Below, piece after piece: positions 4,227 to 37,501 of a stretch of 64,000 nt of DNA (its first letter is position 1; each line of letters opens with the position of its first letter). The stretch spans positions 24,515-88,514 of the forward strand of contig DATKPK010000134.1 of the NCBI GenBank assembly GCA_035524095.1. The letters run 5' to 3'. The translations under genes were made by a program, and so were the position numbers. The notes beneath the pieces were generated by a model that saw only the letters and a list, made by a program, of their open reading frames with translations, was not told where the DNA came from and did no database searches. The stretch comes from Candidatus Binataceae bacterium. GTDB taxonomy: Bacteria; Desulfobacterota; Binatia; Binatales; Binataceae.

Positions 4227-5165
4227 TTATGCGCCTTTGGCGAAGCGATCCTGGAAAAAACGATAGGTCTGCGCCAAACCAGTCGCCAACGAGACATCCG
4301 GCCGCCAGTTCAACTCCCTGGCCGCCCTCGCCGGCGATATTACCGAACGCATCTGTTCGCCCGGACGCGCGGGACCATATTCCGCCGCGCGGCTAGTGCC
4401 CGCCGCTTTCGCGAGGGTGCGAAAAAGCTGATTGACGCTGGTTTCGACTCCAGTGCCAATATTGAATGCCCCTGAAACCGGCGAGGCTACTGCGGCCAGG
4501 TTCGCCCGCACAACATCGCCGACATAAACGTAATCGCGCGTCTGCTCACCGTCGCCATAGATCGTGACCGGCTTGTCTTCCAGCATTCGCCCGCAGAAAA
4601 TCGCCACCACCCCGGCTTCGCCATGCGGATCCTGGCGCGGCCCATAAACGTTGGCGTAACGTAGCGCAACATAATCGATCTCGTACTGCGCCTTATAGAA
4701 AAACAAGTAGGCTTCGGTAGCAAATTTCGCCACCCCGTATGGGCTGATCGGCCGCCGCGGATGATCCTCATTGCAGGGAAATTGCTCCTGCTCGCCATAG
4801 ATCGCGCCGCCCGTGGACGAGAAAATCACCCGCTTCAACCCATGCTGGCGCGCTGCCTCGATCAGGTTCAGAAAGCCAACCAGATTGACTTGGGCATCGA
4901 ACGGCGGATCGGCCACCGACCGCCGCACATCCATCTGCGCCGCCAGATGGATAATCGCCTCCGGCCGTTCCTGCGCGATAATCTGCTGAACCTTTGCCGC
5001 GTCACGCAGGTCCGCTTCGTAAAAACGCGCCTTTGGATTCACCTGTGCACGTTTGCCCGCCGATAGATCGTCCAGCACGGCGACTTCGCTGCGTCCTTCG
5101 GCGATCAATGCGTCCACCGTATTCGAGCCGATAAAGCCCGCTCCACCGGTTACCAATAACCGCAT
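4227..5165 (-). CDS. NAD-dependent epimerase/dehydratase of the extended SDR family; candidate UDP-glucuronate 4-epimerase or UDP-glucuronate decarboxylase
   Basis: MRLLVTGGAGFIGSN Rossmann start and a YxxxK catalytic motif (PYGVAKFATE). 312 aa, GalE/UXS-like. It lies immediately downstream of ugd in the same operon. Confidence 0.85.
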   Translation of the reverse strand: MRLLVTGGAGFIGSNTVDALIAEGRSEVAVLDDLSAGKRAQVNPKARFYEADLRDAAKVQQIIAQERPEAIIHLAAQMDVRRSVADPPFDAQVNLVGFLNLIEAARQHGLKRVIFSSTGGAIYGEQEQFPCNEDHPRRPISPYGVAKFATEAYLFFYKAQYEIDYVALRYANVYGPRQDPHGEAGVVAIFCGRMLEDKPVTIYGDGEQTRDYVYVGDVVRANLAAVASPVSGAFNIGTGVETSVNQLFRTLAKAAGTSRAAEYGPARPGEQMRSVISPARAARELNWRPDVSLATGLAQTYRFFQDRFAKGA

Positions 5166-5216: not shown

Positions 5217-6524
5217 CTAGATCGGCCGCCTGCCTATCGAATAATAACGGAATTCCAGCGCCTTCATCAGTGCGGGATCATATAGGTTGCGGCCATCAAA
5301 TATCACCGGCTCTTTGAGCTCAGCGCGAATCCGCTGAAAATTCGGATGACGAAATTCATTCCATTCGGTGAGGATCAGCAATGCGTCGGCGCCAGCCAAG
5401 GCCTCGTAGTTCGTCCGATGATAGCTGATACGATCGCCGAAAGTCCGCCGCGCATTTTCCAGCGCTTCAGGGTCATGCACCTGCACCCGTGCGCCTGCAT
5501 TCAATAGCTCCTCGATCACCACCAGCGACGGCGCCTCGCGCATATCATCCGTGCGCGGCTTGAACGCGAGTCCCCACACGGCAAAGGTCCGGCCTTTCAG
5601 GTTGTTCCCGAAATGCTGCTTGACGCGATCAACCAAGAGACCCTTCTGCTCGCGATTAACCTCGTCCGTCGCCTTGAGCAGCGTAAAATCCAGCTTGTTA
5701 TCGGCCGCACTATGCACCAGGGCTTGCACATCCTTGGGAAAGCACGACCCGCCATAGCCGACGCCGGGAAACAGGAACTGCGATCCGATTCGCCGATCGG
5801 TGCCCATCCCGCGCCGCACGTCGTTGATTTCTGCGCCGACCGCCTCGCATAGATTCGCCATCTGATTGATAAATGAGATTCGCATCGCGAGCATTGCGTT
5901 CGACGCGTACTTGGTCAGCTCCGCCGAGCGCGGATGCATCACCAGGACTGGATTATCGGTGCGTACAAACGCCGCGTGAATCTCACGCAAAATCGCGGTC
6001 GCCTGTTCGCTGGTACTCCCGATCACTACGCGATCAGGCCGCATAAAGTCCTCGATCGCTGAACCTTCCTTGAGGAATTCCGGCACTGAACAGGCGTCAA
6101 TCCGATGGTCCGCGACGCGCTCGACCAGCGCACGAATCTTGTCGTTAGTACCGACCGGCACCGTACTTTTGACTGCAATTATATGATAGCCGTTGGCCGC
6201 TTTGGCGATACTCTCCGCCGCCGCCAGCACACCCGTCAGATCCGCCGCACCGGTCGCGCTCATCGGTGTACCGACGGCGATGAACGATACCATCGAACGC
6301 TGCACCGCCGGGGCTAGTTCGGTCGTAAAGCTGAGCCGTCCGTCCTTGACGTTGCGCCGCACCAGTTCTTCGAGACCCGGCTCATAAATCGGCACCTCGC
6401 CGCGGCTTAGCTGCTCAATTCGCCGGTGGTCGATATCGACGCAGATGACCTCATTGCCGCTCTCGGCGAAGCAGGTGCCGCTGACCAGCCCCACATATCC
6501 TGTACCCACCACTGCGATGTTCAT
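5217..6524 (-). CDS. ugd: UDP-glucose 6-dehydrogenase
   Basis: MNIAVVGTGYVGLVSGTCFAESGNEVICVDID N-terminus and a catalytic Cys region GGSCFPKD. 435 aa. Confidence 0.9.
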   Translation of the reverse strand: MNIAVVGTGYVGLVSGTCFAESGNEVICVDIDHRRIEQLSRGEVPIYEPGLEELVRRNVKDGRLSFTTELAPAVQRSMVSFIAVGTPMSATGAADLTGVLAAAESIAKAANGYHIIAVKSTVPVGTNDKIRALVERVADHRIDACSVPEFLKEGSAIEDFMRPDRVVIGSTSEQATAILREIHAAFVRTDNPVLVMHPRSAELTKYASNAMLAMRISFINQMANLCEAVGAEINDVRRGMGTDRRIGSQFLFPGVGYGGSCFPKDVQALVHSAADNKLDFTLLKATDEVNREQKGLLVDRVKQHFGNNLKGRTFAVWGLAFKPRTDDMREAPSLVVIEELLNAGARVQVHDPEALENARRTFGDRISYHRTNYEALAGADALLILTEWNEFRHPNFQRIRAELKEPVIFDGRNLYDPALMKALEFRYYSIGRRPI

Positions 6525-6531
6525 CTACGAA

Positions 6532-7470
6532 TTAAAATTCCTCCTTGATCACGTAAATCGGCTTTCTCTGCGATTCGTGATAAGTCCGGGTAATCATTTC
6601 CCCAATTAGCCCCAGGCTGACGAACTGCACCCCAACCACCACCAGCAACACCGCCAGCAGGAGCGCCGGCCGGTTGCTCAACGGCCAGCCCAAGATCACC
6701 TTTTCAAAGACCAGCACGGCAGTCCATATGCTGCCAAACCCCGAAAGGAACACGCCGATCGCCCCGAACACCTGGATCGGCCGAGTCGAATAGCCCGACA
6801 GGAATTGCACCGTCAGCAGATCGAGCACCGTTCGCACGATGCGACCGGGGCCATACTTCGACTTGCCCGTACGCCGCGGACGAAAGCTGACCTGCTGCTC
6901 CGCGATTCTTGCCCCCAATTCCGATGCAATCACTGGCACGAACCGATGCATCTCGCCATAAAGCATCAGGCGCCGCGCGATATCGCCGCGATACGCCTTG
7001 AGCGTGCAGCCATAGTCATGCAGTTCCACGCCGGTCGCGCGCGAAATCATCGTATTTGCGATAATCGACGGCAGCCGCCGCGATATCCCGGCGTTACGCC
7101 AACGCTCGGTGCGCCAGCCGCTGACCAGATCGTAGCCCTCGTCGAGCTTCGCCAGCAGGACTGGAATATCCGCCGGATTGTTCTCGCCGTCCGCGTCAAT
7201 CGCGACGACGATGTCGCCCTGCGTATGCTGAAAGCCGCACGCCAATGCTGCCGTCTGGCCGGAGTTGCGCGCGAGTCGAATCACCCGGACGTGCTCATCC
7301 TCGGCCGCGATTTCACGCAGCACCGCCTCCCCGCCGTCGCCGCTGCCATCATCCACGAACAGAATCTCGTATGACCGCTTTAGCGGCTCGAGCACGTGGG
7401 TCAGTTCGCGATGCACAGGCGCCAGATTGTCCCGCTCGTTATAGAGCGGAACAACTATTGAGAGGTCCAT
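6532..7470 (-). CDS. Family 2 glycosyltransferase with C-terminal TM helices; polyprenyl-phosphate sugar transferase of the ArnC/RgtE/DPM1 type
   Basis: LSIVVPLYNERDNL, FVDDGSGDGG and DADGENNP (DxD) motifs, with two C-terminal TM segments. The ORF extends to 7533, but the ATG at 7468-7470 (MDLSIVV) gives a canonical GT2 start and only a short overlap with the upstream kinase. Confidence 0.85.
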   Translation of the reverse strand: MDLSIVVPLYNERDNLAPVHRELTHVLEPLKRSYEILFVDDGSGDGGEAVLREIAAEDEHVRVIRLARNSGQTAALACGFQHTQGDIVVAIDADGENNPADIPVLLAKLDEGYDLVSGWRTERWRNAGISRRLPSIIANTMISRATGVELHDYGCTLKAYRGDIARRLMLYGEMHRFVPVIASELGARIAEQQVSFRPRRTGKSKYGPGRIVRTVLDLLTVQFLSGYSTRPIQVFGAIGVFLSGFGSIWTAVLVFEKVILGWPLSNRPALLLAVLLVVVGVQFVSLGLIGEMITRTYHESQRKPIYVIKEEF

Positions 7471-8378
7471 CGTGAATGATGGGAATCCGTCAGCTCGATA
7501 AAGGCACGGTAGCGCGCGTCGATATCTTCCCACGCCAGTCTCGTCAGCCCATCGATCGAGAAGCGCTCGACCGCGAATGACGCCATCACCGAGCCGTAAA
7601 CCACCGCCGTCCGTAGCGCCGACTCGCTTAGTCCACCACGGCGCGCGATGAACCCCATAAACGCGCCAGCAAACGTGTCGCCAGCACCGGTCGGATCGAC
7701 CACCTCTTCCAGCGGATAGGCCGGCACGGCAAACATTCCGTCCTGGCTGAACTGCAAGACGCCGTATTCGCCGCGTTTGATTAGAACTGTACGCGGCCCC
7801 ATCCTGAGCAGCGCGCGCCCGGCCTTCACCAGGTTATGCTCGCCGCTCAACATCCGTGCCTCTTCGTCGTTAAGCGTGAGAATACCAATCCGCGGCAACA
7901 GCGCGACTAGCGCTCGCCGCTCATTGTTGATCCATAGATTCATCGTGTCAGCGGCGACCACCTTGGGACTAGCGACCTGCGCTAACACGTGAGCCTGCAA
8001 CTCAGGTGCGATATTCGCCAGAAACACATAGTCGGAACGGCGCTGATCCGGCAGCAGGTCAGGCGAGAAGTCAGCAAACACATTCAATGCGACGCTGACC
8101 GTGTCACGGATATTCATGTCCTCGTGATAGCGGCCATGCCATCGAAAGGTCGGACCGTCGCGCCGCGTCACACCACGGATATCGATGGCGCGCTCGGCAA
8201 AAATCCGCACGTCCTCGTCGCGAAAATCCGTGCCAATCGCCGCCACGATACTGACCGGCGAAAAAAAACGCGCCGCCAGGGCGAAATAGCTCACCGACCC
8301 GCCGATCGCCGACTCCGCCTTGCCGTGCGGCGTCTCGATCGTGTCATAGGCCATGCTGCCGACTACCAGAATACTCAT
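7455..8378 (-). CDS. PfkB-family carbohydrate kinase
   Basis: Ribokinase-like fold with the anion-hole/ATP motif DPTGAGDTFAGAF near the C-terminus. 307 aa. It overlaps the start of the GT2 gene, which suggests co-transcription. Confidence 0.8.
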   Translation of the reverse strand: MSILVVGSMAYDTIETPHGKAESAIGGSVSYFALAARFFSPVSIVAAIGTDFRDEDVRIFAERAIDIRGVTRRDGPTFRWHGRYHEDMNIRDTVSVALNVFADFSPDLLPDQRRSDYVFLANIAPELQAHVLAQVASPKVVAADTMNLWINNERRALVALLPRIGILTLNDEEARMLSGEHNLVKAGRALLRMGPRTVLIKRGEYGVLQFSQDGMFAVPAYPLEEVVDPTGAGDTFAGAFMGFIARRGGLSESALRTAVVYGSVMASFAVERFSIDGLTRLAWEDIDARYRAFIELTDSHHSRWTSQ

Positions 8379-19789: not shown

Positions 19790-20584
19790 TTGATGGTCAC
19801 CTCTCCCCAATTTCAGGCCGGCGTATTGGGTGCCGTCCAGGGCCTCACCGAGTTTCTGCCGGTCTCCAGTTCAGCTCATCTGGTCATCGTACCGTGGCTC
19901 TTCAAGTGGACCGATCCAGGCCTCGCTTTCGACGTCGTGCTGCATCTCGGCACCCTCGTAGCGCTATTGATCTATTACTGGCGCGAATGGCTGACGATGG
20001 CCGCGTCGCCGTTCAACGGTGACCTCAAGAATCGTCGCCTGTTGATCCTCCTTATCGTCGCCTCGGTACCCGGCGCGATAATCGGGGTTTTGCTTGAAAA
20101 ACAGGCCGAAACGGTCTTCCGCTCGCCGCTTCTGATCGCCGTGACGCTCGGCCTGATGGGCCTCGTGCTATGGTTCTTCGACTGGATCGCTCCCCAACGG
20201 CGCAAGATCGATAACCTGACCATCAAGGATGCCTTGATCGTCGGCTTCTGCCAGGCGCTCGCGATCATCCCGGGCGTCTCACGCTCTGGCGCAACCATCA
20301 CGATGGCCCGTATCCTCCACCTCGAGCGCGAAGACGCAGCCAATTTCTCCTTTCTGATGGCGACGCCAATCATCGCGGGCGCCGGCCTGAAGGAATCTGT
20401 TCACCTCGTCCATAATGGGATCAATGCCGCTCTTGCTGTCGGCTTCCTGGCCTCCTTCGGCTTTGGCATCGTCGCTATTGCTTTCTTGATCCAATACGTG
20501 CGGAGCCACAGTTATCGTTCCTTCGGATGGTACCGCCTGGCCGCCGCCATCTTCGTCGCCGCGGTTTATATGCTGCGTCATTAG
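19790..20584 (+). CDS. uppP: Undecaprenyl-diphosphatase
   Basis: GLTEFLPVSSSAHL motif and the PGVSRSGATI motif. 264 aa, 8 TM. A strong SD GGGAGGA lies 7 nt upstream of the ATG. Confidence 0.9.
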   Translation: MMVTSPQFQAGVLGAVQGLTEFLPVSSSAHLVIVPWLFKWTDPGLAFDVVLHLGTLVALLIYYWREWLTMAASPFNGDLKNRRLLILLIVASVPGAIIGVLLEKQAETVFRSPLLIAVTLGLMGLVLWFFDWIAPQRRKIDNLTIKDALIVGFCQALAIIPGVSRSGATITMARILHLEREDAANFSFLMATPIIAGAGLKESVHLVHNGINAALAVGFLASFGFGIVAIAFLIQYVRSHSYRSFGWYRLAAAIFVAAVYMLRH

Positions 20585-20682
20585 GCCTTACTGGAGCCGC
20601 TCAAGCCTTGTTGCCTCCTGTAAATGCTCCGGGCATTTCAACGCTTCGGCGGCCGCCTCTCTGATGGCGAACCGAGTATGAG

Positions 20683-22173
20683 ATGACCATCTTGTCGGAC
20701 GATCCCGGACAGTCTGAGCCTCGGGACCCTGTTACGGAGGCCAATACTGATCCGGAGAGGCTAAGGAATCCAGGGCCAGCGAGCCACCGCAACGGATGGT
20801 GGATGCTGCTCGCGATTGCTCTCGTGACAATCATCGTCCGGCTGGCGTTGTTGCCAGACCGCGATGGCACGCGGGCACTCGACCCCAGTGGCGACTCGCT
20901 TGCTTACGTCGAATTAGCCGAGGGCTTGCGTCACGGATGCGGCTTCGCGCGGCTCCACGACGGCAAGTGCCTTAACCCCGAAATCGACCGCACTCCCGGC
21001 TATCCCCTCTTCCTCGCAACGTTCTCAAATTTTCGCGCCGCACTGATCGTGCAGGTTTTGCTCGCCGGAGTGATCGTTTTCGCCGCCGGCGCCTTCGTCT
21101 ATCTGAACTGGGGTATCGGCGCGGCCCTCGTGGCCTCGACCTTTATCGCCCTCGACCTGCCTAGCATCGTTTACGCCGCCGAGTTGATGACCGAGACGCT
21201 ATTCACGGCCTGCTTCGCGCTCGCCACCCTTCTCGCCCTTTACGCATTGAACGGCAACCCACGAGTGCAACGATTGCTCATCCCGATGCTCGGGGCATCC
21301 GCGCTGCTGAGTTTCGGCCTGCTGACTCGCCCGATTGGCGAATTCGGCTTGGCCGTACCCGCGATTCTGGTGCTGCTCGTCAGCTCGGCCCCTTGGCCGC
21401 AGCGGCTCGGCCTCCAGCTTCTATTACTCTCGCTTCCACTTCTGACGATTGCCGGGTGGTCGCTCCGCAACCATGCTGTGGCTGGCGTCGCCGCTCCTTC
21501 GAGCATCGGCGCCTCTAACTTTTTCTACTATCGGGCAGGCGGGACACTCGCCTTCTCGTCGGGCAGCGGATGGCTTGGCGCAGTCAACCAGTTGGGGACC
21601 CGCCCGGAAAACCACCTAACCAGCGATGCCTTCGCGATTATTGAACAGCACCCCCTGGCTTTTGCTGAAATGACCACATGGAGCCTGCTCTTTGTCGCTT
21701 TGGCGCCGGTGCGAACGCCCTTGGATCACATTCTGGGCGTGCAGCAGTCCTTCCCCATCCAGGATCCGGGTTCAATCCGCCTGCGTGCGGATCTCCGGAC
21801 TCTTGCAACCTCGCCTCGCGCCGCCCTCGTCACGATCTATCGCAATGAATTCGACGGTTCACCCGCCATCACAGCCCTGACCGGTCTCCAAATGTTTTCG
21901 GTAATCCTTCTCTGGATTGGAGTGATCGCCGGGTTGAGCTTCGCCTCGACCCGTTCGTATCGCGGTGCCTGTATCCTGATTCTCGCGGCCACTGCCTTCG
22001 TCCTGATGCTACTCGCGGCCGGCCCCGAGGGTACTGCCCGCTTGCGCATCCCAACCTTGCCCTTTCTCGCGATGGTCGCCGGCGTCGGCTGGACTCGCCT
22101 CGCTACACGCCGGCGCGCGCAGCGACGACGGCGGAGGATTCAGCCGTCCTCCCTACGCGCCTCCCCAACCTGA
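20683..22173 (+). CDS. GT-C fold membrane glycosyltransferase, PMT_2 / ArnT-like family
   Basis: Polytopic membrane protein. The first periplasmic loop carries DSLAYVELAEGLRHGCGFARLH ... EIDRTPGYPLFLA, typical of the PMT_2 (GT39/GT83-like) family. It is Arg-rich at the C-terminus. Confidence 0.75.
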   Translation: MTILSDDPGQSEPRDPVTEANTDPERLRNPGPASHRNGWWMLLAIALVTIIVRLALLPDRDGTRALDPSGDSLAYVELAEGLRHGCGFARLHDGKCLNPEIDRTPGYPLFLATFSNFRAALIVQVLLAGVIVFAAGAFVYLNWGIGAALVASTFIALDLPSIVYAAELMTETLFTACFALATLLALYALNGNPRVQRLLIPMLGASALLSFGLLTRPIGEFGLAVPAILVLLVSSAPWPQRLGLQLLLLSLPLLTIAGWSLRNHAVAGVAAPSSIGASNFFYYRAGGTLAFSSGSGWLGAVNQLGTRPENHLTSDAFAIIEQHPLAFAEMTTWSLLFVALAPVRTPLDHILGVQQSFPIQDPGSIRLRADLRTLATSPRAALVTIYRNEFDGSPAITALTGLQMFSVILLWIGVIAGLSFASTRSYRGACILILAATAFVLMLLAAGPEGTARLRIPTLPFLAMVAGVGWTRLATRRRAQRRRRRIQPSSLRASPT

Positions 22174-22337
22174 AAACGCGAGCCCCCAGCCGGTGCGTTC
22201 CGCATCGGCTGGGGGCTCGCGCAAACTAAGAGAGGGGGCCGGAACATCACGGCGTTCGGGCCCTGATGCTCCGGCCCCTCCAATCCCCGGAAACGGTGCG
22301 GGACGGCTATGCCGTCCCGCACCGTTTCCGACTCCCG

Positions 22338-22604
22338 CTATTTTACCGGCGTACGATTGCCCGCAGTGTCGTACGAGAACACCTCGGCGCCCTCGTCCCG
22401 CGTCTTCTTATGCGTGCCGTCACAGTACGGCTTGTTCTTCGACAATCCGCATGCGCAGATCCAGACCGGCAATTCGGTCCCTTCTGCAATCTCGTACGGC
22501 CCCGTCTCTTCATGCTTTACCAGTCGCGCCATGACTTCCCTCGCTCTTTTATGGGCGCCCGGAAGTCCCTTCCGTGCGCACGTTGTAGCGCGATCAAAGA
22601 CCAC
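22338..22604 (-). CDS. CDGSH-type iron-sulfur domain protein
   Basis: [18 protein letters not shown] matches the C-x-C-x2-(S/T)-x3-P-x-C-D-G-(S/A/T)-H signature. 88 aa. Confidence 0.8.
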
Positions 22605-22721
22605 CGATGCCTCTCAAGTCAAATTCTCCCGCACCATGCATTCGACCGACGCCACCGCTATCCTTACGCCGATGGCTCTTCACGCATCCCCGGCCTTCTC
22701 TGCTTCACCTGAACCGATCGT

Positions 22722-24548
22722 ATGAAGACCAATCCGCTTCACGGGAAACCAACTAACGCGACCTTGCCCGTAACGGCCGATCAGCCGCTAAATGCGGCCG
22801 TGGAGTCCGCCAATCCTCCAACGCAATCTGTTGCTTCTGATGAAACTTATGCCCTCGACCGCCGCCTCGCGCTCCGTCTCGCGACCCTCACAAGTCCGGC
22901 CGTCGCGATCCCGCTGATACTGGTCGTCGGTGCGGTTCTCTTTCTCGTAAATCTAGGCGGCGCACCTATTTATACCAAGGGCGAGGCTCGTGAGGCCGTC
23001 ACCGTATTTGATATCGCGCATGGGGGCGGCGTCATCCTCCCGATGCGCGCTGGGGTCGAAATCCCTTCAAAACCCTTGATGATGCACTGGCTGGCCGCAC
23101 TCATCTCGCTCATCGCTGGTGGCGTCTCCGCCTGGACCGTACGGTTGCCTTCGGCGCTCCTCGCCATCGCAGGCGCCCTCGCCAGCTATCTCTATGTCCG
23201 CCGGCTTTTCGAGGCCCGCAGCGCTCTCCTCGCCGCCCTTATCCTCCTGACTTCAATCCAATATCTTCAGGCTGGCACCGGTTCGCGCGTCGATATGACG
23301 CTGACCTTCTTTCTCACCATCGCCTTCTTTGAATTTCTGATGGTCGCCGAAGGTCTTCGCTCCCCGCCGATCTTCTTTTACCTCGCTGTCTCTATGGCCG
23401 TCCTTACCAAAGGTCCCGTCGGCGCTCTCCTGCCCGGGATCGTCGCCTTCATCTGGATCATCCTGTGTTGGCGATGGTCCTTGCTGCGCCGGATCCAACT
23501 CCTGCGCGGCGCCTTGATCCTCGGCGTCCTGGGCGGCGGATGGTATCTCCTCGCCATCCTGACCGGCGGCGAAGCCTTCATCCATAAGCAGATTCTCGCC
23601 GAGAACCTTTACCGTCTCACCGGCCATGCGGGCGTCAACGAGGGCCACGCGCACCCCTTCTACTATGAGGACGCCGCCCTGCTCGCCGGCTTCATGCCAT
23701 GGACGCCCGTCGCTCTGATTGCCCTCGTTCAGGCGATTCGCCGCCGCCGCCGCCTTGAGCCACGCCTCGGCTATTTGCTCGTATGGTTTCTGACTGTGCT
23801 GATTTTCTACAATCTGCCGGAAAGCAAACGCGGAGTTTATCTTCTTGCCTCATATCCCGCGGTCGCGACGATTATCGCTCTCTACCTCGGTGACGCAATT
23901 ACTTACCCCGACCTTACCGCTCGAGTCAGCCGTGTGATTGCCCTCATCATCGGCTTGGCCTTCGTCCTTATTGGTGGCGCTGCTGCGATCGGCCTGGGTT
24001 TGCTCTATATCTCACCCGCCACTCTCAACGACATCCTCGCGCCGATCCGAATCATCGTCGCCGAATTGCCAACCGCACTCCGGAGCAACGTAACGCACTA
24101 TCTCCCAATCGCGATTGCACTACCCATCATCGTGCTGGCGCTCGGAGTTTTTCTGCTCCGCGCTCGCCCGCGCGCCGACAAGATCGTCTTCGCGATCACC
24201 GGCGCGATGGCCGCAATCGCTCTCGCTGTCAGCCTGATTATCCAGCCTGCCCTTGGCAACAGCCTGACGGTCAAGGATTTCGCGGTCTCCGTGAATCAAA
24301 CTGCGGCTGGGATGCCGATCGGCTACTTCGGTACCGTCGATTATGCCTTCGCGTTCTACAGCGGTCGCGACCTGGATTTGATTAACGACCGCGACGTGAA
24401 CCCGCCCGCCTACATCGTTTGCTCAGATGACGGCCTGCGCCTGATGCCTCCCGCGATGCGCTCCCACTACACCATCGTTCTGACCAGCCATCCAACCGAG
24501 CTCGACGGCACCGGCGTCATGTATCTGCTCCACCACAACGCAACTTAA
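22722..24548 (+). CDS. ArnT-like (GT83/PMT_2) polyprenyl-phosphate-sugar-dependent glycosyltransferase with C-terminal periplasmic domain
   Basis: N-terminal ArnT-like signature GAPIYTKGEAREAVTVFDI...ILPMRAGVEIPSKPLMMHWLAA, and TKGPVGALLPG. About 13 TM segments, then a roughly 100-aa soluble C-terminus. Confidence 0.8.
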   Translation: MKTNPLHGKPTNATLPVTADQPLNAAVESANPPTQSVASDETYALDRRLALRLATLTSPAVAIPLILVVGAVLFLVNLGGAPIYTKGEAREAVTVFDIAHGGGVILPMRAGVEIPSKPLMMHWLAALISLIAGGVSAWTVRLPSALLAIAGALASYLYVRRLFEARSALLAALILLTSIQYLQAGTGSRVDMTLTFFLTIAFFEFLMVAEGLRSPPIFFYLAVSMAVLTKGPVGALLPGIVAFIWIILCWRWSLLRRIQLLRGALILGVLGGGWYLLAILTGGEAFIHKQILAENLYRLTGHAGVNEGHAHPFYYEDAALLAGFMPWTPVALIALVQAIRRRRRLEPRLGYLLVWFLTVLIFYNLPESKRGVYLLASYPAVATIIALYLGDAITYPDLTARVSRVIALIIGLAFVLIGGAAAIGLGLLYISPATLNDILAPIRIIVAELPTALRSNVTHYLPIAIALPIIVLALGVFLLRARPRADKIVFAITGAMAAIALAVSLIIQPALGNSLTVKDFAVSVNQTAAGMPIGYFGTVDYAFAFYSGRDLDLINDRDVNPPAYIVCSDDGLRLMPPAMRSHYTIVLTSHPTELDGTGVMYLLHHNAT

Positions 24549-25707: not shown

Positions 25708-26511
25708 TTACGATAGCTTCGCCCGCCGCAAGTCCGCGATTGCCCCAATCAATCGTGGCATCACCTCGCCCGTCGGCCCGCGCAAACTGATATCCGCGAG
25801 CGGCGTCAGCTCCGACTCGTAGAGATTCGCCTCGATCATCAAGCCCCCGCGCCGCTTGACGTCGATCGCAAAGCCCGCCGCTGGATAAACCGTCGCCGAC
25901 GTTCCCGCGACGATCACCAGGTCTGCGCGCCCCGCGTGCTCGATACATTGCGCCAGTACGTCACGCGGAATCGGTTCGCCGAACGCAACCGTGTCGCCCT
26001 TCACCAGTCCACCACATTCAGGACACTGCGGGGGCAACACTTCCAGCGAAATTTTCGCGGCGTCGAAACGCAGGCCGCATTCGATACACCGGATCAGCTT
26101 CCAGTTGCCGTGAATCTCCGCCAGTGACGATTGTCCGGCCTGCCGGTGCAAATCGTCGACGTTCTGAGTAATCAGAAACCGCAGTACGCCAAGCTCTTCC
26201 AACTCGGCGAACGCGTGATGGCCCGGGTTGGGCTGTGCAACCTTCAGCGGTCCCCACAACTCGTCATTCTGCCGCCTGATCCGATCTTCCCACGCCTTTT
26301 TGGGATCCTGAAGAAATATCTGATAACCGTTCATCGGCGGCTCGCCGTATTTGGTCCACAAGCCGCCGGGACCGCGAAACGGCGGAATCCCGCTCTCGAC
26401 CGACATCCCGGCCCCCGTTAGCGCGATCGCATATTGCGCCTCGAGGATTGCGCGCGCCGCCGCGATTATCTCCTGGTCTGTCGCTCTCGGCTCCGCTTGC
26501 GCTGCCATCAC
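25708..26511 (-). CDS. cobB: NAD-dependent protein deacylase (Sir2/CobB family)
   Basis: GAGMSVESGIPPFRG and QNVDDLH motifs, a catalytic HG, and a zinc ribbon CIECG...CPECGG. 267 aa. Confidence 0.85.
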   Translation of the reverse strand: MMAAQAEPRATDQEIIAAARAILEAQYAIALTGAGMSVESGIPPFRGPGGLWTKYGEPPMNGYQIFLQDPKKAWEDRIRRQNDELWGPLKVAQPNPGHHAFAELEELGVLRFLITQNVDDLHRQAGQSSLAEIHGNWKLIRCIECGLRFDAAKISLEVLPPQCPECGGLVKGDTVAFGEPIPRDVLAQCIEHAGRADLVIVAGTSATVYPAAGFAIDVKRRGGLMIEANLYESELTPLADISLRGPTGEVMPRLIGAIADLRRAKLS

Positions 26512-36187: not shown

Positions 36188-37501
36188 CTAGAGCAGTCCC
36201 GACCCCGAACCCGTCTCTCTCGGCCCGGGCGGACCCGGACGGCGCCGGCCGCCATCTTCCGCCAGACCGTACCGCGTCAGCATCCGGTAAAGCGTCGAGC
36301 GTGAGATTCCCAGTAGGTCGGCCGCCCGCCGGCGGTTGCCCTCGGTTTCTTCCAGCGATCGGACCAGCGTGCGCTTGATCACCTCGTCGAGCAGCAACGG
36401 CGCCTGCGCTTGTCCAGGATTCGCCGTGGGCGCTGCGGCCGCCTGACTCTCCAAAAAGCTATCGCCGAGTTCGATCGGCGTTTCCGTCGGATTATCAGCC
36501 GATGGCTCGGACCGCGGATAGGTGCGGTTCATCACATGGTCGGGCAGCGCATGAGTATCTAAACGATCGCCGTCGGTCAGCATGACTGCGCTCTGCACCG
36601 CATGAGCAAATTCGCGGACATTACCCGGCCAGTCATATTCGCGCATCACATCGAATACCCGCCGCCGCACGTAGCGAATCGCTTTGCCGAACAAGCGATT
36701 GTAATGCTCGATAAAATGACCGGTGAGCGCTTCAAGGGCGTCACGCCGTTCGCGCAGCGGCGGAATCAGAATCGCAGTCGCGCTCAGCCGATAGTAAAGA
36801 TCGTCGCGGAACTCGCCCAGCTTGACCATCGCGCGCAGGTCTCGATTCGTCGCCGCAATCAGCCGGATATCGACCTTGTAACTCGCCGCTGACCCGACCG
36901 GCTGCACCTCATGGGTCTCCACGGCTCGCAAGAGTTTGGGCTGCAAGCGCAAGGGCAACTCGCCGATCTCGTCCAAAAACAGCGATCCGCCGTTGGCCGA
37001 CCGGAAATACCCGAGCGAATCCTCTCGCGCGTCGGTGAACGCTCCTCGCACATGACCGAATAGCTGCGACTCGGCCAGATTCTCCACCAGATTCGAGCAG
37101 TTGAAAGTTACAAATGGTCCTTTCGGCACGGGTCCCAGCGTATGCAAAGCGCGCGCGACCAGCTCTTTTCCGGTTCCCGATTCCCCGTGAATCAATACCG
37201 TCGCCTTGTATGGGCCCAAACGAGCGATCGTTTTGAGCACGCGACGCATATTCGCCGATTGCACGACCATGCCGCCGACGTTTTCGGCCCCAAGGCCGAG
37301 TGTGTCGATATCAACCCATTCGTTGTCCGCTCCACCCGGACGAAGTTCTTCCGGCGGTCCCATGCGATTTACTACTTCTACAGAATCATCCAAATCCCAA
37401 ACCTTCGGACAGGGCGCTCTTGCGATCCCCATAGCGCCTCGACAAGCCGCTCCCCAGCAATCGCCACCGTCCGGCGGCTGATAAAGCAAGTCGAGGGCCA
37501 C
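36188..37501 (-). CDS. Sigma-54-dependent transcriptional activator (bEBP) without canonical receiver domain
   Basis: AAA+ sigma-54 interaction domain (VLIHGESGTGKELVARALH and a GAFTGA-like loop GHVRGAFTDA), plus a C-terminal Fis-type HTH (ADLLGISRSTLYRMLTRYGL). The N-terminal region is too short for REC or GAF. Confidence 0.85.
   Translation of the reverse strand: MALDLLYQPPDGGDCWGAACRGAMGIARAPCPKVWDLDDSVEVVNRMGPPEELRPGGADNEWVDIDTLGLGAENVGGMVVQSANMRRVLKTIARLGPYKATVLIHGESGTGKELVARALHTLGPVPKGPFVTFNCSNLVENLAESQLFGHVRGAFTDAREDSLGYFRSANGGSLFLDEIGELPLRLQPKLLRAVETHEVQPVGSAASYKVDIRLIAATNRDLRAMVKLGEFRDDLYYRLSATAILIPPLRERRDALEALTGHFIEHYNRLFGKAIRYVRRRVFDVMREYDWPGNVREFAHAVQSAVMLTDGDRLDTHALPDHVMNRTYPRSEPSADNPTETPIELGDSFLESQAAAAPTANPGQAQAPLLLDEVIKRTLVRSLEETEGNRRRAADLLGISRSTLYRMLTRYGLAEDGGRRRPGPPGPRETGSGSGLL

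Follow-up and report, generated by a model that had tools for sequence, protein, structure and literature searches.

A Conserved ArnT-Like Glycosyltransferase Gene, Its CDGSH Neighbor and an Inserted Second GT-C Gene in a Candidatus Binataceae Locus

Introduction

In a contig of Candidatus Binataceae bacterium (GCA_035524095.1, contig DATKPK010000134.1, positions 24,515-88,514, forward strand; this stretch of 64,000 nucleotides is called the window below), an undecaprenyl-diphosphate phosphatase gene, uppP, is followed in the same orientation by two genes for GT-C membrane glycosyltransferases of 496 and 608 amino acids (aa). A gene for a CDGSH iron-sulfur protein lies between the two transferase genes, and a gene for a GST-like protein follows the second. 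Do the two transferases and their neighbors form one working system, or did genes of different history come to lie side by side? The initial annotation, made from the letters of this one genome, proposed two cooperating GT-Cs with two acceptor sites, fed with a polyprenyl-phosphate-sugar by a GT2 encoded at 6.5-7.5 kb, and regarded the CDGSH and GST-like genes as unusual companions. The five open reading frames (ORFs) that it named agree exactly, in coordinates and strands, with a mechanical ORF list, and the gene identities hold: UppP, then a 496-aa and a 608-aa lipid-carrier-dependent membrane glycosyltransferase, all on the plus strand. The closeness of the genes in one genome had hinted at two transferases working with an Fe-S partner; set against 80 related loci, the region shows instead one core gene and two recent insertions, and its architecture is a lineage-specific accident. 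We therefore read the locus as a mosaic in which two recent insertions interrupt a conserved backbone; the 608-aa protein would be a core ArnT-like enzyme and the 496-aa protein an accessory polysaccharide-modifying GT-C, and we assign to this reading a probability of about 0.6.

Results and Discussion

The 496-aa Gene Is Inserted Into a Conserved Binataceae Backbone

An alignment of the 608-aa family was used to scan one genome per species and, together with a contig look-up of homologs, yielded 193 relatives. The best 80 of these 193 were taken as 608-ortholog loci. Their labels are nearly all Binataceae/Binatus or delta-/proteobacterium metagenome-assembled genomes, and 56 of the loci are at least 18 kb long. 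Flanks of 10 kb around each 608 ortholog were compared, and the neighbor counts given here refer to that distance. Among the 56 longer loci, CDGSH was the most frequent neighbor (52 loci), followed by SIR2 (47), UppP and the 105-aa ORF orf105 (42 each), an EamA transporter, an oxidoreductase and the 230-aa ORF orf230 (41 each), and SHMT (39). The 496-aa gene was found at none of the 80 loci, and hence at 0/56 of those of at least 18 kb.

The dominant gene order is SHMT(-), oxidoreductase(-), orf230(+), orf105(-), UppP(+), EamA(+), CDGSH(+), GT-C(+), SIR2(-). In the clade nearest to the window the EamA-CDGSH segment is inverted, which gives UppP(+), CDGSH(-), EamA(-), GT-C(+). Five loci (L010, L017, L019, L020, and L069) have CDGSH(-) directly divergent from the GT-C gene and no EamA match, as in the window, and four of the five also have UppP. 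Neither an EamA nor an AhpC ortholog was found within the 64-kb window; EamA has been lost in its lineage and in several other species. The uppP gene is part of the conserved backbone, yet it is absent from this locus in the close relative L004. It was also observed that in most Binataceae (L029-L088) uppP, a gene for an EamA/DMT protein with 10 transmembrane segments and the CDGSH gene run in one direction, with short gaps between them, and precede the ArnT-like gene.

When longer contigs were examined, just two close relatives, L003 and L004, proved to have an ortholog of the 496-aa gene at this locus. It stands after uppP in L003, and in L004 it is present without uppP and without the GST-like gene. 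The 496 proteins of the window and of these two relatives are 65-70% identical, compared with 95-97% for SHMT, 93% for SIR2 (L004), 86% for UppP (L003), and 79% for the 608 protein (L004). Judged from these identities, the 496 protein is the fastest-diverging member of the block. A word-prefiltered search of 5.8 billion sequences gave 63 matches to the 496 family. Elsewhere its members are found in clusters with genes for a Wzz/GNVR tyrosine kinase, a 960-990-aa Wzy_C-TPR protein, GT4 enzymes and a methyltransferase (L005/L006, L096, L097, L111), and in L096 and L097 the family member lies directly 3' of the Wzy_C-TPR gene. Beside the fetched 496-family loci no UppP, CDGSH or 608 homolog was seen outside the window's own relatives (L003 and L004). 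We concluded that the 496-aa gene is a recent lineage-specific insertion between uppP and CDGSH, and that its source is polysaccharide gene clusters.

The second insertion is the GST-like gene. Its 365-aa product is unusually long, with ~100 residues past the GST_C domain. The gene is missing from this position in all relatives examined; in L004, L007, L008, and L009 no GST-like gene separates the 608 ortholog from SIR2, and the GST-like genes near other 608 orthologs (8 loci) encode paralogs of 25-27% identity at a different position. It is a genome-specific insertion between the 608-aa gene and SIR2, and its absence from L004, the closest relative with both GT-Cs, speaks against a role as partner.

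The 496-aa Protein Is a Predicted GT-C Enzyme

ArnT/PMT_2 signatures had been attributed to both transferases. For the 608-aa protein a PMT_2 match bears this out (Table 1); for the 496-aa protein the attribution fails in sequence models and stands in substance, through structure prediction and remote homologs. The 496-aa protein gave no PMT_2 (PF13231) match in Pfam, even at E = 10, and no meaningful match in NCBIfam or in a PDB phmmer search. A profile built from 38 sequences of the family found only PsbY fragments in the PDB, at E about 0.4. Some 496 homologs do carry PF13231 (P0005, P0037, and several distant ones among P0048-P0062), and structure prediction together with remote homologs gives the 496-aa protein the multi-helix GT-C membrane fold that is common to ArnT, PMT, STT3, ALG, and Aft enzymes. 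In structural matches both the 496-aa and the 608-aa protein are closest in fold to ArnT.

Conservation in the 496 family was read over 38 members. D71, an acidic residue of the first periplasmic loop, is kept in at least 90% of them; the first juxtamembrane helix (H71-83) opens with it, and an invariant Y75 follows, a spacing that resembles D55...Y59 of ArnT. Further invariant positions are R103-T104-P105, Y107, R216-P217 (LTRPIG vs. LTKGLVG in ArnT), W259, R262, and N263. The 496 and 608 families gave only a weak profile-profile match (probability 41%, E 2.8e-4), yet it keeps these motifs in register, and it pairs RTPGYPL with PSKPLMM and LTR-PIG with LTKGPVG. On these models the 496-aa protein is predicted to be a GT-C enzyme overlooked by the current Pfam and NCBIfam models, and the family, which sits in Wzy-type polysaccharide clusters, can be annotated from structure.

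The Two GT-C Genes Are in Different Transcription Units

The 496-aa gene starts 98 bp downstream of uppP on the same strand and, given this spacing, transcription probably continues from uppP into it. Hairpins with stems of 21, about 18, and 20 bp occupy the 164 bp that separate the 496-aa gene from CDGSH. Folding of 22177-22330 gave a minimum free energy of -129.5 kcal/mol (z -13.95 against shuffles), and the hairpin arms at 22177-22221 and 22288-22330 exceed all other inverted repeats of the window in length. Relatives have hairpins of unrelated sequence at the same position. The hairpins at 22177-22330 have no T-tract. The three hairpins are probably terminators or insulators that end both the uppP-GT-C unit and the CDGSH transcript. 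In a promoter and terminator consensus scan, matches occurred at chance level; an Rfam scan found no family in the window, and no tRNA lies near the locus.

On the other side, the CDGSH and 608-aa genes point away from each other, with about 117-189 bp between them. The GST-like gene begins 48 bp 3' of the 608-aa gene, and its stop codon is 13 bp from that of the convergent SIR2 gene. The two GT-C genes are thus in different transcription units, split by three hairpins and an opposite-strand gene.

Candidate Donor Genes and the Case for a Functional Pair

A competing explanation is that the two GT-Cs form a functional pair, like RgtA/B vs. RgtD, that draws on a common donor made by the genes at 4.2-7.5 kb and serves two sites on lipid A or lipopolysaccharide (LPS). 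The shared nearness to the ArnT fold speaks for it, and so does an ArnC/GtrB-like GT2 gene next to genes for Ugd and a 4-epimerase. The GT2 protein matched ArnC structures with 1.5e-56 over residues 23-331, which includes the C-terminal membrane part, and GtrB (5EKE) with 7e-39. The NCBIfam ArnC model was matched at 3.3e-63 and 214 bits, below its equivalog cutoff of 529. The neighboring SDR gene was also considered as a UXS-type decarboxylase; this was ruled out, the product being GalE-like (Table 1). By analogy with an RgtE-like pathway, a polyprenyl-phosphate hexose or uronic-acid donor from GT2, Ugd, and the epimerase is plausible. In Rhizobium such transferases and the donor synthase RgtE are scattered around the genome, a point in favor of the pair.

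Of the proposal that this GT2 supplies the donor, what stands is the enzyme itself, a full-length ArnC/GtrB-type protein whose gene adjoins those for Ugd and the 4-epimerase. No genomic linkage was found in the flanks compared: no GT2, ugd or epimerase gene lies within 10 kb of any 608 ortholog (0/56 loci). In the window the GT2 gene is on the strand opposite to the GT-Cs and 13-15 kb away, with PfkB, MTAP, RlmN, methyltransferase, HlyD, amidohydrolase, cytochrome c, and SHMT genes in between. L007 and L008 have other genes upstream of SHMT, and on this ground the linkage of the GT2 to the 608-aa gene is probably not conserved. On the side of the 496 family, an ArnC-like GT2 was found within 10 kb of a member in three distant cases only. 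The 608-aa gene is a core gene, the 496-aa gene is missing from all 56 longer orthologous loci and belongs elsewhere to Wzy-type clusters, and in the window itself the two lie in separate transcription units. Two cooperating transferases with two acceptor sites are hard to reconcile with two families of such different histories, and we consider the functional pair unlikely.

CDGSH Is the Most Faithful Neighbor of the 608-aa Gene

The CDGSH gene had been described as antisense between the two GT-Cs. It does lie between them on the opposite strand, and it overlaps neither. Far from being an unusual companion, it is the most faithful neighbor of the 608-aa gene and not an intruder between two transferases. 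When all 80 loci were counted, 68 had CDGSH at most 10 kb from the 608 ortholog. It is directly upstream on the same strand in 36 loci, on the same strand with 1-7 kb inserted in 13 (e.g., an opposite-strand SDR gene in L043), and on the opposite strand in 19; in the remaining 12, mostly short contigs or longer paralogs, it was not detected near the 608 ortholog.

The complete cluster-binding motif CxCx2Sx3PxCDGTH can be read in the CDGSH ORF. Since homologs are 64-67 aa long vs. 88 aa for the ORF in the window, the real start is probably the ATG at 22532 (22338-22532, 64 aa). The 64-aa product matches the bacterial structures 3TBN, 3TBO, and 3TBM (E 2.5e-9 to 3e-7).

Does this persistence mean that the iron-sulfur protein works with the transferase? 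CDGSH, with EamA and UppP where they are present, could form a module with the 608-aa enzyme, with EamA as the flippase of a lipid-linked sugar, UppP as the source of the carrier, and the 2Fe-2S protein as a sensor or relay of redox or iron status. The 68 loci just described, 36 of them with direct same-strand adjacency, are consistent with such a module and include loci in which no UppP or EamA was found within 10 kb; consistent with it, too, is the spacing of only 3 bp between uppP and EamA in L043 (6778-8867). EamA also recalls the flippase subunits ArnE and ArnF, which are EamA/DMT-type proteins. However, the whole 12-gene block is syntenic and the adjacency may be inherited rather than selected; the CDGSH-GT-C pair is interrupted in 13 loci and inverted in 19, and EamA has disappeared from the window and from several other species. 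Moreover, nothing known connects a soluble cytoplasmic Fe-S protein with a transferase acting on the periplasmic face. A full-text literature search found no paper on a CDGSH-glycosyltransferase link in bacteria, and the conserved CDGSH/ArnT-like adjacency is undescribed there; a search on Binatota and LPS returned nothing relevant. We regard a working module as distinctly unlikely, and within the mosaic favored here CDGSH is a member of the conserved backbone.

The 608-aa Protein Is ArnT-Like and Has an Altered First Loop

The 608-aa protein consists of transmembrane helices and an alpha/beta periplasmic domain at about residues 520-608, i.e., the full-length ArnT architecture. The soluble C-terminal domain that had been thought extra is this ArnT-type periplasmic domain. 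In structure the protein resembles ArnT more closely than Pmt4; Pmt4 and Pmt1/2 are also among the structural matches. We file the protein as ArnT-like and not as ArnT. With the NCBIfam ArnT equivalog PRK13279 it scored 93.1 bits and did not reach the cutoff of 567, and no arn operon (ArnB, ArnC, ArnA, ArnD, ArnE/F) was found around the gene, the neighbors being UppP, EamA, CDGSH, and SIR2.

Residue conservation was read over 38 close homologs and over a wider set of 119 representatives of 50%-identity clusters, reaching down to ~30% identity. The chain numbering of ArnT in 5EZM is the native numbering + 3, and this offset was applied in the residue mapping. A profile of the 608 family aligned with the PDB from residue 113 onward and did not place the first-loop motif; Gly87 was equated with ArnT Asp55 from a pairwise alignment and from a second one, made with MAFFT, that included part of the ArnT sequence, and not from superposed coordinates. 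In this alignment the first loop of the 608-aa protein, Y-T-K-G87-E88-x-R90-E91, stands against G-P-D55-E56-G-R58-Y59 of ArnT. Gly87 is invariant in the 38 close homologs and is Gly in 107 of the 119 wider representatives, in which Glu88 (= ArnT Glu56) is kept in 115 and Glu91 in 116. K117, D191, K230, R298, and Y373 align with ArnT K85, D158, K203, R270, and Y345; all five are invariant in the 38 homologs and are found in 103-119 of the 119 representatives. Asp158, Arg270, and Tyr345 are reportedly functional residues of ArnT. The catalytic residues by which the assignment was to be judged are therefore present in part: Gly occupies the position of the essential Asp55, and the Glu next to it is kept, as are the counterparts of D158, K85, K203, R270, and Y345.

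The roles of ArnT residues given here are based in part on PMC7801869 and PMC8698208. It was reported that the first Asp is retained in all GT-C/PMT-clan transferases compared in that study (PMC7801869). As cited from Petrou 2016 in PMC8698208, the D55, K85, and K203 mutants of the Cupriavidus metallidurans enzyme (CmArnT) are dead, and Glu or Asn in place of D55 is inactive.

Because Gly is at the Asp55 position in the whole subfamily, we interpret the 608-aa protein as a member of an ArnT-like subfamily with an altered first-loop acid. From the clustering, this K-G-E-x-R-E subfamily is large (at least 119 clusters at 50% identity) and uncharacterised; we know of no characterised member. In P0184-P0331 the first loop was seen to follow the pattern (Y/H/F)(T/S)(K/R)-G-E-x-R-E. 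Longer paralogs of the 608 family (660-856 aa) were also observed, at L041 9902-12472, L050 10031-12475, and L089 9890-11872, in a different context; their upstream neighbors (488-650 aa) had no Pfam domain. In the literature searched, both the K-G-E ArnT-like subfamily and its CDGSH neighbor are undescribed, while the 608-aa protein itself is already a GT39/ArnT-family entry in public records. A separate exact look-up of the window's 608-aa sequence gave no entry.

That the 608-aa enzyme is instead a protein O-glycosyltransferase of the PMT/GT39 kind, its Asp lost in keeping with a hydroxyl rather than a phosphate acceptor, would fit Gly87, the Pfam PMT match (PF02366, 30.9 bits vs. a cutoff of 22.7), and the name "glycosyltransferase family 39 protein" of a 100% identical NCBI record, but the structural match is weaker than that to ArnT, the Pfam scan reported only PMT_2 and PMT and no C-terminal PMT domain, and of the DE motif the Glu alone is present; we consider this reading improbable.

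Little weight is likewise given to the idea that the Gly-for-Asp exchange and the persistent CDGSH pairing in Binataceae, often as part of a UppP-EamA-CDGSH-GT-C unit, are linked, such that a different base or acceptor is used and glycosylation of the envelope is tied to redox or iron status. Apart from that idea, the Gly-at-Asp55 subfamily would lend itself to a cheap test of how invariable the catalytic motif of GT-Cs is. The findings do not yet bear on a long-standing question.

Proposed Roles and Points Against the Mosaic

In the mosaic, the 608-aa enzyme would transfer a sugar from a polyprenyl-phosphate-sugar, at the periplasmic face, to an envelope acceptor, most likely lipid A or the LPS core. 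K117, K230, and R298 would hold the donor phosphate. Since the canonical first-loop Asp is Gly in the whole 608 subfamily, we propose D191 together with E88 or E91 as the acidic residues. The 496-aa gene, once inserted between uppP and CDGSH, would ride on the uppP transcript, which the strong hairpins would close off, and its product may act in the periplasm on a surface polysaccharide, adding a sugar to it or modifying one, in the manner of serotype-type modifying enzymes. The ArnC/GtrB-like GT2, Ugd, and 4-epimerase could supply the donor to either GT-C.

Several points weigh against this reading. An Asp without which CmArnT does not function is missing from the 608 family, whose chemistry or acceptor may differ from those of ArnT. 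Co-transcription of uppP and the 496-aa gene is argued from the 98-bp spacing, and L004 has a 496 ortholog without uppP. A 64%-identical 496 homolog sits beside phage-like genes and not in a polysaccharide cluster: at 8001-15449 of L001/L002 it abuts genes for a Mu-type portal, a 1242-aa pectate-lyase-like (tailspike-like) protein, and a Gp53-like protein, which hints at occasional phage carriage of the family. The flanks compared around orthologs reach 10 kb, and a conserved linkage of the 608-aa gene to a GT2 gene 15 kb away would lie beyond them. The donor and the acceptor of both enzymes are predictions. A phage origin of the 496-aa gene as the general case was also considered and set aside, as a scan of viral contigs gave one weak match only.

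Gene Map

The features of the locus and of the candidate donor region are collected in Table 1. The UppP assignment exceeds the TIGR00753 equivalog cutoff. Elsewhere in the window lie a Tad/Flp-type pilus gene set and a gene for a sigma-54 activator.

Table 1. Coordinates of genes and hairpins in the 64,000-nucleotide window (position 1 is its first letter).
Feature	Position	Strand	Evidence or remark
GalE-like 4-epimerase	4227-5165	-	SDR; PDB 4ZRM 6.8e-94
UDP-glucose 6-dehydrogenase (Ugd)	5217-6524	-	adjoins GT2
ArnC/GtrB-type GT2	6532-7533	-	full-length match to ArnC structures
orf230, ORF of unassigned function, 230 aa	18355-19047	+	weak AHSA1-like match only; upstream of uppP
orf105, ORF of unassigned function, 105 aa	19261-19578	-	upstream of uppP
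uppP, undecaprenyl-diphosphate phosphatase (BacA family), 264 aa	19790-20584	+	Pfam BacA 3.5e-80; TIGR00753 223.0 bits vs. cutoff 217.5
496-aa membrane glycosyltransferase, predicted GT-C fold	20683-22173	+	small divergent family; without periplasmic domain
Three consecutive long GC-rich hairpins	22177-22330	.	gap between convergent 496-aa gene and CDGSH
Single-domain CDGSH protein, predicted 2Fe-2S, ORF 88 aa	22338-22604	-	zf-CDGSH (PF09360) 9.4e-12, 45.4 bits vs. 29.5
608-aa ArnT-like GT-C	22722-24548	+	PMT_2 2.2e-15; PMT 2.5e-7
GST-like protein, 365 aa	24597-25694	+	GST_N_3 30.7 bits, GST_C_6 31 bits, both barely over cutoffs
Sir2/CobB-type deacylase	25708-26511	-	Pfam SIR2 6.3e-43; conserved convergent 3' neighbor of 608-aa gene
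Sigma-54 activator	36188-37501
Tad/Flp-type pilus gene set	38377-43399		two T2SSF genes, T2SSE ATPase, CpaE/TadZ-like AAA_31 protein

Comparison With Known Systems

The closest known relative of the 608-aa protein is ArnT (PmrK; undecaprenyl-phosphate-L-Ara4N:lipid A transferase; GT83; Cupriavidus metallidurans, 5EZM/5F15), from which it differs by Gly at Asp55 and Glu for Y59. At the positions of E84, H265, and H267, which we take to be the zinc ligands of ArnT, the 608-aa protein has Ser, Ala, and Asn. It also differs in its NCBIfam score (93 vs. 567 bits) and in the absence of an arn operon around its gene. The 496-aa protein is set further apart from ArnT: it lacks a periplasmic domain, its sequence is not detectably similar, and its gene lies in another genomic context.

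PMT enzymes (GT39) belong to the same GT-C clan as the 608-aa protein and share with it the Pfam PMT and PMT_2 matches and the structural matches to Pmt4 and Pmt1/2; they differ in the points given above, among them the DE-motif Asp.

The Rhizobium galacturonosyltransferases RgtA, RgtB, RgtC, and RgtD, together with RgtE, follow a like logic: an ArnC-like GT2, encoded elsewhere, makes the polyprenyl-phosphate uronic acid on which ArnT-like GT-Cs draw. The likeness is one of logic, and the two GT-Cs of the present locus differ in evolutionary history.

For the 496-aa protein, a parallel is found in the GtrC-type serotype-converting GT-Cs of Shigella and Salmonella phages (gtrABC), which are likewise accessory, fast-diverging, and patchy in distribution, and presumably depend on a GtrB/ArnC-like GT2. 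Here, however, there is no adjacent gtrA or gtrB, viral contigs gave the one weak match, and the usual context of the family is Wzz/Wzy/GT4.

The 64-aa CDGSH product shares the full motif with the bacterial CDGSH proteins 3TBN, 3TBO, and 3TBM, which are without an assigned cellular role, and its conserved place next to an ArnT-like gene is one of the few genomic handles on bacterial CDGSH function.

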